UHGV virus genome: UHGV-0211239
Source of the DNA: a virus
Length of the DNA stretch: 41,840 bases
Strand: one strand, 5' to 3'
The position numbers were made by a program, and so were the translations under genes. Each line of letters begins with the position of its first letter. Position 1 is the stretch's first letter. This document shows, piece after piece, positions 1-41,840 of the stretch. The notes under the pieces were generated by a model. The model did no database searches and was not told where the DNA came from. It worked only from the letters and a program-made list of their open reading frames with translations.

Positions 1-9
1 ATTGAGAAT

Positions 10-30
10 ATAGTAGAGTGCTTCTATCAT
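10..30. promoter_or_regulatory. Arc operator (Oarc) in the divergent Pant/Pmnt control region
   Basis: Sequence atagtagagtgcttctatcat is the reverse complement of the 21-bp P22 arc operator as I recall it (two symmetric TAGA boxes); lies between arc and mnt. Confidence 0.75.
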
Positions 31-57
31 GTCAATACACTAACTTGGGGTGATGGC

Positions 58-306
58 ATGGCTAGAGACGATCCGCACTTTAACTTCCGTATGCCTTTGG
101 AAGTAAGAGAAAAATTGAAATTAAGAGCAGAGGCTAACGGAAGGTCAATGAACTCTGAGTTATTACAAATCGTTCAGGATGCTCTCTCAAAGCCATCACC
201 GATTGCAGGCTATCGAGACGAAGCTGAACGCTTGGCTGATCAGCAAGCAGAAATTGTTAAGAAGATGGTGTTTGAAACCCTGAAAAAAATGTACGAGACC
301 AGATAG
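58..306 (+). CDS. mnt: Mnt repressor (ribbon-helix-helix, Arc/MetJ family)
   Basis: 82 aa; N-terminus MARDDPHFNFRMP..EVREKLK.RAEANGRSMNSELLQIVQDAL matches P22 Mnt; divergent from arc; SD ggggtga upstream. Confidence 0.9.
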   Translation: MARDDPHFNFRMPLEVREKLKLRAEANGRSMNSELLQIVQDALSKPSPIAGYRDEAERLADQQAEIVKKMVFETLKKMYETR

Positions 307-348: not shown

Positions 349-948
349 GTGATTGAGATAGGCGTTATGGCCATCCTGAATCAAGAGCCAGGAAAAATTG
401 AAAACGTTTTTTCTGACATATCAACATCTATCGAGCGTTCAATTTCAGACTTTGATCGCAGTCATAGCGGCTCTTTGTCTAAAAAACAGGCTTCTGAAGC
501 TCTTAGCAAGATCTACTGCGTTATGTCACCTGTAGAGGAAGTTTGCAAAAAGTACATTACATTCATTGACATATTAAGTAATGGTACGGAAGAAGATATT
601 TCCTCACTTGATATTCAACATGACGATGTAGATATGTTGAACGATCAAATATCTAAGCTTGATTATGGTATCGCGAAACTGTTGTATACCTTCTTCATCG
701 CTGAGAACAGCGATGCGTGGAAGCCCCATATGTCAACTCTTACAACAATGAAAAACCACTCAATAAATACTTTTATAGAATACAAAAGGCTAACTATGGG
801 GCTTGTGACGCTAGCAATGCAGCACATACCACTATCATATGCTGAACCTGAAGAGTTCACTGAAGAAGAGTTGGCTTCATTCAAGAAATCAGTTGAAGAT
901 TCACATAAAAGATTTGGCATGGAAGCACCAAAATGGAAAACCGCATAA
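349..948 (+). CDS. Hypothetical protein (first gene of cluster at sieA position)
   Basis: 199-aa ORF, GTG start at 349 (alternative ATG at 367); no motif recognised; 3' end overlaps next ORF by 16 nt. Confidence 0.5.
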   Translation: MIEIGVMAILNQEPGKIENVFSDISTSIERSISDFDRSHSGSLSKKQASEALSKIYCVMSPVEEVCKKYITFIDILSNGTEEDISSLDIQHDDVDMLNDQISKLDYGIAKLLYTFFIAENSDAWKPHMSTLTTMKNHSINTFIEYKRLTMGLVTLAMQHIPLSYAEPEEFTEEELASFKKSVEDSHKRFGMEAPKWKTA

Positions 949-1352
949 GCATTGTTGTAGATGCAGCGGCTGGACCATTAGAACAATACTTTGCGAAGGC
1001 TCTTGCAAACTACAAAAACAGAGGCACCGTTTCAGCTTATCTTGGTAAGATTGGTGGGTTTGAGAGAAACCATCACGCCGTCTTATCGGGAATTTACAAG
1101 TCGCACATCAGGATCCCTGGAGTAGATGATCCTTGGTTAAAAACAACGCCAATACATCGTAGAGTTAGCGATAACTTTTTGATATTTGCGGTACACAACA
1201 CATATCCAATTCATATCCAGATCATTGCTATCATTAAACCTGATGGTCATGAGAAGGTAAAAAAACTATTGCCAGCCATCATTGATATAACTGAAAAAAG
1301 ATTCCAATCTCTAAATGAGAGGGAGCTTAACTCGTTGATTTCATACAAATAA
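933..1352 (+). CDS. Hypothetical protein; weak RelE/ParE-like beta-strand/His pattern near C-terminus (unverified)
   Basis: 139-aa ORF, ATG at 933 overlapping upstream gene; segment HRRVSDNFLIFAV...IHIQIIAIIKPDGHEK is reminiscent of toxin folds, by eye only. Confidence 0.45.
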   Translation: MENRISIVVDAAAGPLEQYFAKALANYKNRGTVSAYLGKIGGFERNHHAVLSGIYKSHIRIPGVDDPWLKTTPIHRRVSDNFLIFAVHNTYPIHIQIIAIIKPDGHEKVKKLLPAIIDITEKRFQSLNERELNSLISYK

Positions 1353-40444: not shown

Positions 40445-40467
40445 AAAAAAACCCAGCCGAAGCTGGG
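40445..40467 (-). terminator. Intrinsic terminator after ant
   Basis: Minus-strand RNA cccagc-uucg-gcuggg followed by UUUUUUU. Confidence 0.65.
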
Positions 40468-40486
40468 TCGTTGAGTTGGTTATCTG

Positions 40487-41365
40487 TCAGTAGTTATGTA
40501 CTGAAGGAGGTAATTCTTTATTCTTAAGTCTCATCCATGCGGAAAGATTCGTTGGTCCGTCTGGCTCATTAATATCAACATCTCGTGTATGGTTGATTAA
40601 AACATCTCTCGCCATTCCGATAACATACGAGAACTCATGACCGTAGTCGTAGCATCTGCCGGAATAATTCGATTGAATTTGTTTTAATGCCGGATACAGT
40701 TCGCGGAATAATGCCTGTGAGCGGTTGGCATAATCCCATAACCATACAAGACTGTTTGCTTCTTTTGCAGAAAGCTCGTTGGTTTTCTTCTCTTGCTTGC
40801 CGATGAACTCACCTTCAAGCACTACCCTGTGGATGTACTCTACGGCCAGCGGGATTTGTTCAATTGAAAGTTCATCAATGCTGTCAATACCAAAACGCTG
40901 ATGAACCATATTGTATGCATCGTCATAGCGAAGTCCTTTCTTTCCTACCAGCATGTTTACTGCATCGCGTAGCGGTGTTCTTTCCTCAACAGTGGTTTTC
41001 TTTCCTTTTACATACTCGTCATGTTTGCGAATTGAAGGCAGAACTTCTGCTGTTACCCACTTGCGGAATTTGTGCGGGACTGAACCTTTATTGACTGCAT
41101 CGCGGCAGCGCAGAACCAATGTATACATACCTGATTCGCTCACAATGCTTATATTCTGCTCACCACCAAGGGTGTAACTTAAAGTTACTCCCTTTTCATC
41201 GTCATCAAGTGCAGTAAGCGCCTTGCGTGAGTTAGTCAAAGCTAAAGCATCACAAACATCTTTAGCTACAAACCACGGCTCGCCGCACTTGTTAATGACG
41301 CGAATTTCACTGTCGCCAAATTTGAAGATGGTGAAATCGTTTTGTGCCTTTGCTATACTTTTCAT
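40487..41365 (-). CDS. ant: Antirepressor (Bro-N domain)
   Basis: 292 aa; N-terminal [30 protein letters not shown] is Bro-N-like; downstream of arc. Confidence 0.7.
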
Positions 41366-41427
41366 GTCAATATTTCCTAATCCGATTTGTTGATACCGAA
41401 GCCCTGACTGTTACCGCAGTTGGGGCT

Positions 41428-41652
41428 TCAACTTTTCACTTCTTTAAAGTGCCTACCTTCTACAGTTGCTCTGAGATAAAAATTCTTATCTTTACCGTTT
41501 AGTGCTTCCCAAGCATCAACAATGCACTTATTACAGATGTGGACTTCTCGATAACCAATAGCTTTCCTGTCAATATTAGTGAACATAACAGTTTCTTTAT
41601 CTGTCAATGTGGATGCATGACAGAAGTCGCAATCTATATAAGATACCTTCAT
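41428..41652 (-). CDS. Small CxxC...CxxC zinc-ribbon protein between arc and ant
   Basis: 74 aa; Cys at 8, 11, 40, 43; ATG overlaps arc stop; SD gagaggggat. Confidence 0.5.
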   Translation of the reverse strand: MKVSYIDCDFCHASTLTDKETVMFTNIDRKAIGYREVHICNKCIVDAWEALNGKDKNFYLRATVEGRHFKEVKS

Positions 41653-41807
41653 ACCGTTATCCCCTCTCTCTTCAGGCTGTCCATCACTCGCTTGTAAATC
41701 TCAGAGTTAACAGATCGCCCGTTCTCTTCCGCCACCTTACGCACCAAATCCAATACTTCTTTAGGCCACCGCAAATTGAACTGCGGCATTTTGCTCATTC
41801 CTTTCAT
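41649..41807 (-). CDS. arc: Arc repressor (ribbon-helix-helix)
   Basis: Start re-set to ATG at 41807 (MKGMSKMPQFNLRWPKEVLDLVRKVAEENGRSVNSEIY...) matching P22 Arc (53 aa); SD gaggtg. Confidence 0.9.
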   Translation of the reverse strand: MKGMSKMPQFNLRWPKEVLDLVRKVAEENGRSVNSEIYKRVMDSLKREGITV

Positions 41808-41821
41808 ATTCACCTCACAAT

Positions 41822-41840
41822 ATAGGTCCACCGTGGACCT
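41822..41840. promoter_or_regulatory. Mnt operator (Omnt) palindrome, truncated by the window boundary
   Basis: taggtccaccgtggacct; with base 1 (a) it completes a 19-bp palindrome taggtccaccgtggaccta. Confidence 0.75.

Follow-up and report, generated by a model that had tools for sequence, protein, structure and literature searches.

The immI region of phage P22 is built around an operon of arc and the antirepressor gene ant, which is read from a promoter, Pant, that contains the Arc operator and adjoins the Mnt operator, with the mnt gene lying divergently. Its antisense RNA, sar (Rfam RF00262), consists of two stem-loops, is antisense to the ribosome-binding site of ant, and has its promoter inside ant. 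The immI region of phages P1 and P7, which comprises the c4 antisense RNA, icd and ant1/2, is another case of an antirepressor operon under the control of an antisense RNA. In P1, ant is preceded by icd, a short reading frame of some 73 codons. Expression of ant there depends on translation of icd, to which ant is coupled, and this translation is the target of the antisense RNA. The wider region around the P22-type ant gene has previously been described as a rapidly changing 'ant moron' (PMC2629481).

We analysed the UHGV virus genome UHGV-0211239, a stretch of 41,840 nt which is hereafter called the window, and in which a small zinc-ribbon gene lies between arc and ant. On balance, we favour an account in which the locus is a P22-type operon with a sar RNA, and the additional gene, Zn74, serves as early accessory cargo encoding a zinc ribbon similar to the N-domain of ClpX.

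The immI operon and its predicted sar antisense RNA

As judged from its sequence, the window is a whole P22-like (Lederbergvirus-type) genome in circular permutation, with the cut inside the immI region (Pant/O-arc/O-mnt). Since the cut falls inside the control region, the Pant promoter of the arc-ant operon is found at the opposite end of the window, while arc, the 74-aa ORF and ant succeed one another on the minus strand of its last 1.4 kb (Table 1). Positions 1-36 are the reverse complement of P22 ATTGACATGATAGAAGCACTCTACTATATTCTCAAT, which bears the annotated Pant and O-arc, and O-mnt differs from that of P22 by a single base change just outside the palindrome. The defining elements of a P22-type immI region, namely Pant with the Arc operator, the adjoining Mnt operator and a divergent mnt, are thus all present. 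The initial annotation had proposed a P22-type arc/ant operon and an extra CxxC...CxxC ORF between its two genes. The first proposal is borne out by the gene order, the Arc and Ant families and the operator matches, and the second by comparison with P22. On the minus strand, Pant would drive arc, then Zn74, then ant. The position of the terminator 3' of ant agrees with that of the annotated ant terminator of P22 and Emek, and the tailspike gene comes next.

Table 1. Features of the immI region in the window (positions are those of the 41,840-nt stretch)
Feature	Position	Strand	Remarks
Pant promoter with Arc operator between the hexamers	1..36	-	spans the circular junction; -35 TTGACA, -10 TATATT
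mnt repressor gene	58..306	+	divergent from Pant; Pfam Arc 96 bits, Repressor_Mnt 55 bits
Gene for 199-aa protein	349..948	+	directly downstream of mnt; without family match
Gene for 139-aa protein	933..1352	+	Pfam YafO_toxin 45 bits (cut-off 25); 16-nt overlap with the 199-aa gene
Intrinsic terminator 3' of ant	40450..40469	-	terminator scan; 8-bp stem, then TTTTTTTAT
ant antirepressor gene	40487..41365	-	292 aa; Bro-N and P22_AR_C (Pfam); PHROG 245, anti-repressor Ant, E = 5e-111
Psar promoter (predicted)	41331..41359	+	GTGAAA, 17 nt, TATACT with TG (extended -10); within ant codons 2-12
sar antisense RNA (predicted)	41366..41435	+	+1 and 3' end set by homology to the 70-nt P22 annotation
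ant Shine-Dalgarno AGGA	41375..41378	-	9 nt before ATG; complementary to the loop of sar stem-loop 1
sar terminator hairpin (predicted)	41398..41429	+	perfect 14-bp stem, 4-nt loop UUAC; then AACTTTTCACTTCTTT
Zn74	41428..41652	-	74-aa C4 zinc-ribbon gene; CDFC at residues 8-11, CNKC at residues 40-43
arc	41649..41807	-	52 aa; Pfam Arc 94.8 bits; aligned to P22 and Emek
Shine-Dalgarno-like GAGGGG for Zn74	41661..41666	-	in the E-G codons of arc, 8 nt before ATG
Mnt operator palindrome AGGTCCACGGTGGACCT	41824..41840		same as P22 under the annotated Mnt-binding site

P22 and the window agree in the order and orientation of the genes, in their operator and promoter sequences, and in the sar terminator and the -10 of Psar; both have a terminator after ant. 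The two Arc proteins share about 85% identity, and the window Ant has, like that of P22, a P22_AR_C domain. The two loci differ in four respects. In the window, arc and the sar terminator are separated by a 225-bp gene, Arc ends in ...DSLKREGITV here versus ...ESFKKEGRIGA in P22, the N-terminal domain of Ant is Bro-N here versus P22_AR_N, and in sar stem-loop 1 every pair has changed while pairing was kept, these fully compensated changes matching a different ant leader. The window ant is 98% identical to that of phage Kapi1 (locus L003), where a different Arc-family gene directly abuts the sar hairpin and an HNH endonuclease gene (1999-2499 in L003), absent from the window, lies between ant and the tailspike gene.

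A hairpin between the 74-aa ORF and ant had been noticed earlier and assigned to a sar-like RNA. Its coordinates stand, but it does not lie wholly between the two genes: its final two bases are shared with the TGA stop codon of Zn74 (the G and the A), so that the stop overlaps the base of the hairpin. The RNA itself belongs to the true sar family. The Rfam model RF00262 matches positions 41367-41433 on the plus strand with 72.7 bits (gathering threshold 43; E = 9.4e-15) and over its full length (model positions 1-68 of 68). The 69-nt sar folds into two hairpins with a minimum free energy of -29.7 kcal/mol (z = -7.3 versus 200 shuffles), the second stem-loop being the GC-rich terminator. The orientation claimed for the hairpin, antisense to the ant ribosome-binding site, was also confirmed, as the loop of stem-loop 1 exposes an anti-Shine-Dalgarno UCCU that faces the AGGA of ant, and a promoter-like site lies inside ant. 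The extended -10 of this site, TTGCTATACT, is invariant in an alignment with the annotated P22 Psar (promoter scan and alignment). The window RNA differs from the described sar in its stem-1 allele and in the T-run after the terminator, TTTT here versus TTT in P22. Among the related loci tested, sar scored above threshold in all 11, whatever cargo they carried.

We conclude that the hairpin is the terminator of a plus-strand sar homologue predicted to be antisense to the ant ribosome-binding site. The competing assignment, a minus-strand terminator between Zn74 and ant, was ruled out, as no T-run follows the hairpin on that strand. A generic terminator scan left the sar hairpin unlisted, its T-run being short, and it treated the annotated P22 sar terminator likewise. 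By homology to the P22 mechanism, Psar inside the first ant codons would give rise to an RNA of about 69 nt that ends at the hairpin and pairs with the ribosome-binding site of ant; following the P22 paradigm, it would block ant only. This part of the locus is already known biology, and finding the sar/ant circuit once more adds nothing new.

Two further observations concern the ant leader. M-x-S-I-A is the common beginning of Ant proteins whose N-terminal domains are unrelated (Bro-N, P22_AR_N, KilA-N), and ant codons 1-5 (41351-41365) are the opposite strand of the Psar extended -10. The M-x-S-I-A codons thus double as a promoter element, which suggests that the antisense promoter constrains the N-terminus of Ant. 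In three IMG/VR loci (L037, L066 and L076) the sar hairpin is kept and arc is absent, a promoter-like TTGACA region and a palindromic operator lying directly upstream of the hairpin; this layout suggests that the ant leader/sar module also serves another control arrangement.

Zn74, a conserved gene between arc and ant

The ATG of Zn74 (41652-41650) overlaps the arc stop codon TGA (41651-41649) as ATGA (41649-41652). Translational coupling of the ORF to arc, as the initial annotation had suggested, agrees with this overlap and with the GAGGGG inside arc, and we infer from these two elements that the start of Zn74 is coupled to the arc stop. The arc/ORF overlap is kept, as ATGA or GTGA, in all Zn74 homologues and, beyond this family, in all cargo types found at this position.

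The protein is one residue away from RefSeq WP_000868958.1, which is annotated as a hypothetical protein. Its homologues, of 42-97% identity, come from prophages of E. coli, Citrobacter and Salmonella. All of them are 74 aa long and have the same place in the order arc-ORF-sar-ant, overlapping arc by 4 nt and lying 62-66 nt from ant, with sar in the gap. The cysteines C8, C11, C40 and C43 are invariant in eight sequences spanning this range of identity. Shorter, 52-aa forms in Salmonella, which might have meant that the first zinc knuckle is dispensable, proved to be gene-calling artefacts: the 74-codon frame is intact, with a GTG start over the arc stop. Between the window and an 80%-identical homologue, dN/dS is about 0.16 (0.14-0.17) at a dS of about 0.75; in more distant pairs the synonymous differences are near saturation (pS 0.72-0.97, pN 0.23-0.42).

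The family is rare. It forms 7 clusters among 5.8 billion proteins and has 5 representatives among 1.84 billion; it occurs in 23 of 5,426 complete E. coli genomes and on 8 IMG/VR contigs. A tblastn search of 50,697 phage records returned no homologue in a deposited phage, and a pattern made from the N-terminal peptide had no match in GTDB representative genomes. The family was found only in arc-ant operons, where the Arc partner is of two types and the N-terminal domain of Ant of three. Pfam, PHROGs, NCBIfam and PADLOC gave nothing above threshold.

A lack of Pfam, PHROG and NCBIfam assignments, together with a RefSeq entry that is merely hypothetical, would be expected of a chance frame or a decaying remnant, in which case the hairpin would be no more than the terminator of the upstream genes. 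Decayed cargo does exist at the same position in other phages, as a 12-codon remnant of the gene V57. For Zn74, however, the dN/dS of about 0.16 and the retention of length and all four cysteines down to 42% identity argue strongly against this possibility, as do the missing minus-strand T-run and the place of the hairpin as the plus-strand 3' element of a full-length sar match; we regard it as highly improbable. Judged by its conservation, Zn74 is a real gene under selection.

It is not a moron of the classical kind. By the definition of Hendrix and Casjens, as quoted in PMC2629481, a moron is an independently transcribed inserted gene with its own promoter and terminator. Between arc and ant, a promoter and terminator scan revealed no site on the minus strand that resembles either element, and Zn74 overlaps the arc stop. 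The classical designation was therefore rejected, and Zn74 is best called an in-operon cargo gene within the larger 'ant moron'.

The slot between arc and the sar terminator

To survey this position, IMG/VR was scanned for the sar terminator hairpin and the sequence upstream of it was read. The hairpin is identical or nearly identical in at least 120 loci, which differ in cargo and in their sar stem-1 and ant alleles. In most of the loci listed arc itself ends at the hairpin, as it does in P22 (...FKKEGRIGA), while 45 of the 120 matches listed have a gene or a remnant in between. The occupants include a 67-aa CxxC protein (Zn67, phrog_7150) in at least 15 loci, a gene of the Emek orf73 type (phrog_11805) in at least 11, V57 (57 aa, GTG start) in at least 4 and its deletion remnant in at least 6, an 89-aa membrane/coiled-coil protein (TM89, WP_001555392.1, phrog_27312) in at least 3, a 60-aa protein with a Pfam-significant ClpX zinc finger of 43 bits (Zn60) in at least 2, and a 63-aa CxxC protein (Zn63) in at least 1. 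Zn74, which has no PHROG, was met in at least 3 loci of this survey and is the rarest among the common slot types. With the exception of the zinc proteins, the slot sequences are mutually unrelated.

Whatever the occupant, the frame around it is the same. The insertion point is shared with Zn74: at the junctions inspected, the occupant joins an Arc that ends in ...SLKREG(I/V/L)xV via GGGATAACGGT(A/G)TGA, and its stop codon sits at the base of the sar hairpin. The sar RNA, Psar and a spacing of 62-63 nt to ant are constant across cargo types, while the type of cargo, the stem-1 allele of sar and the type of ant are freely shuffled relative to one another, suggesting that the terminator hairpin acts as a conserved joint between the arc/cargo and ant modules. 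What is chiefly new here is that, on comparison of these loci, the stretch from arc to the sar terminator is a swap-in cargo slot for at least seven unrelated small genes. The literature searched held no description of this micro-slot.

One occupant appears to be caught in the act of leaving. V57 (VIRLDAVVKE...AAKKSKQ) is also present as a 12-codon remnant, VIRLDAAKKSKQ, produced by an internal in-frame deletion, in L027, L049 and four more IMG/VR loci (compare L011 and L068). The remnant shows what reads as cargo loss in progress, with the arc linker retained.

The survey bears directly on the earlier suggestion that the ORF provides extra regulation of antirepressor expression. Taken literally, this suggestion would make Zn74 an added immI regulator, either a nucleic-acid binder acting on ant translation or on sar pairing, or a modulator of Ant or Arc. 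Such a role would fit a gene that is always in the arc-ant operon and nowhere else, whose Ant partners all share the P22_AR_C domain, and whose stop codon always abuts the sar-target hairpin, where terminating ribosomes could affect the structure of the ant leader; P1 icd offers a precedent. The resemblance to P1 and P7 is limited, however, since sar in the window is aimed directly at the ribosome-binding site of ant, and coupling of the small ORF would be to arc rather than to ant; tblastn detected no similarity of Zn74 to any deposited phage, P1 included. P22 and most of its relatives run the same circuit with the slot empty, and elsewhere the slot accepts at least six other small genes, one of which encodes a membrane/coiled-coil protein. 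The sequence of sar, its promoter and its spacing to ant are independent of the cargo, the Zn74 family itself is combined with two Arc types and three Ant N-terminal domains, and the arc stop of P22 has the same place relative to the hairpin, so that the geometry is not new. An unchanged sar geometry around unrelated cargo is better explained by a swappable accessory gene than by a dedicated regulator of ant. The regulatory suggestion was therefore not upheld; Zn74 is probably not a dedicated ant regulator, and the added-regulator reading in either of its forms seems to us improbable.

The slot can thus be regarded as a natural catalogue of proteins made together with the antirepressor at infection, in a setting where sar and the geometry are fixed.

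Resemblance to ClpX, proposed role of Zn74, and the position downstream of mnt

The N-domain of ClpX is a dimeric module for the binding of proteins and peptides. It forms dimers on its own, and its ligands include MuA, FtsZ and the adaptors SspB and RssB (PMC5415555). The Pfam model of this zinc-binding domain (zf-C4_ClpX, PF06689; PDB 1OVX, 2DS5-2DS8) scores 19.0 bits on Zn74, which is below its gathering cut-off of 27; a sub-threshold match was obtained in all eight members of the Zn74 family, the best with an E-value of 7.7e-4. When the Zn74 profile was compared by hhalign with the zinc-domain segment of E. coli ClpX, the alignment reached 94% with E = 1.4e-7 and a score of 36.2, this being a pairwise comparison of shallow profiles. 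Shuffles of the ClpX segment in which the cysteines were held fixed scored 13.2 +/- 3.2 with a maximum of 24.6, and none of 200 reached 36.2. The zinc regions of rubredoxin, Ogr and DksA scored 9-13. The similarity to the ClpX domain thus exceeds what the cysteine pattern alone would give. Against the other zinc proteins of the slot, the Zn74 profile gave 85% and E = 6e-6. Among these proteins, Zn60 matches PDB 1ovx and 2ds5 with E of about 1e-7 (9e-8 for 1ovx), and Zn63 and Zn67 are linked to the ClpX zinc finger through PHROG.

Zn74 shares with the ClpX domain the CxFC(G/H) and (Y/H)ICxxC(I/V) knuckles followed by a helix. It differs in being a stand-alone protein, in having 7-10 more residues between the knuckles (according to two hhalign alignments), and in carrying a conserved C-terminal tail of 20 residues that is absent from ClpX. 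A search of PDB sequences with the Zn74 family profile returned only a spurious endothelin match. Structure prediction, which had been proposed as a check on the ORF, was partly successful. AlphaFold2 with 7 close homologues gave an unusable model (pLDDT 41); with three distant homologues added, the model was moderate (mean pLDDT 69), with residues 4-52 at 73-86. In this core a beta-hairpin is predicted, and after it a helix beginning at the second CxxC; the last 20 residues of the protein stayed unmodelled. Fold searches with the moderate model found weak generic zinc-finger matches, and ClpX was not among them. Taken together, Zn74 is probably a divergent zinc ribbon of the ClpX N-domain type, with Pfam membership below threshold.

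What might such a protein do? From the sequence context and the P22 paradigm, Zn74 would be transcribed from Pant only. Mnt would keep it off in the lysogen. Soon after infection it would be produced for a short time alongside Arc and Ant, until Pant is turned off by Arc, and its translation would begin at the arc stop. Most likely, Zn74 is an early accessory or host-interaction protein and a putative protein binder, which would act by binding a protein partner.

If a specific function is to be named, our preferred guess, and a tentative one, is that Zn74 mimics the ClpX N-domain as a free-standing protein. It would then compete for the adaptors or degrons of the N-domain, or pair with the ClpX N-domain itself, and would shift ClpXP-dependent turnover during the opening minutes of an infection. 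The literature searched contained no phage-encoded mimic of this domain.

The same evidence can be read as pointing away from ClpX, towards an early anti-defence or host-takeover protein for which the zinc ribbon is simply a scaffold for another target. Expression from a promoter that, by the P22 paradigm, fires only at infection would suit such a protein, and the slot is hypervariable, with many small genes replacing one another, as counter-defence loci typically are. The region has already been described as being in rapid flux (PMC2629481), and the family is rare and fast-diverging, Zn74 having fallen to 42% identity in a locus (L130) where arc is still at 85%. On the other hand, PADLOC found no match to known defence-associated families, and a specific target cannot be put forward. 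Zn74 resembles the ClpX domain by more than its cysteine pattern, and three more slot occupants are relatives of the ClpX zinc finger, a recurrence that would be unexpected if the fold were incidental. We consider this alternative doubtful, and equally so the targets one might envisage for it, a defence protein or a heteroimmune repressor of the host or of a prophage.

Returning to the mimic reading, one may ask whether it extends to the slot as a whole. In this most far-reaching version, the position would be a hot-swappable effector slot with recurrent ClpX N-domain mimics (Zn60, Zn63, Zn67 and the divergent Zn74), which would be decoys for, or partners of, the ClpX N-domain and would reprogramme substrate and adaptor selection by ClpXP. 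The slot also holds non-zinc proteins and is in itself uninformative on ClpX, and we regard this version as unlikely. Were the mimics real, a phage protein could be stabilised or protease-triggered abortive-infection systems could be blocked, and the occupants would represent a new class of phage-encoded protease modulators. That four slot families have ClpX-type zinc ribbons points to a connection, open to testing, between ClpXP recognition and the early functions of these phages. If the target of Zn74 is a different one, the slot would still be a compact place for counter-defence or host-takeover factors in Enterobacterial prophages.

The two genes downstream of mnt in the window (Table 1) look like a toxin-antitoxin-like pair in the prophage-expressed mnt operon. 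At the corresponding position, E. coli AZ146 has a hypothetical protein and a PIN-domain protein, and two further loci carry a Rap1a-like protein (L134) and a SieA-like protein (L136). The position 3' of mnt thus appears to be a second cargo slot, of the exclusion/defence type.
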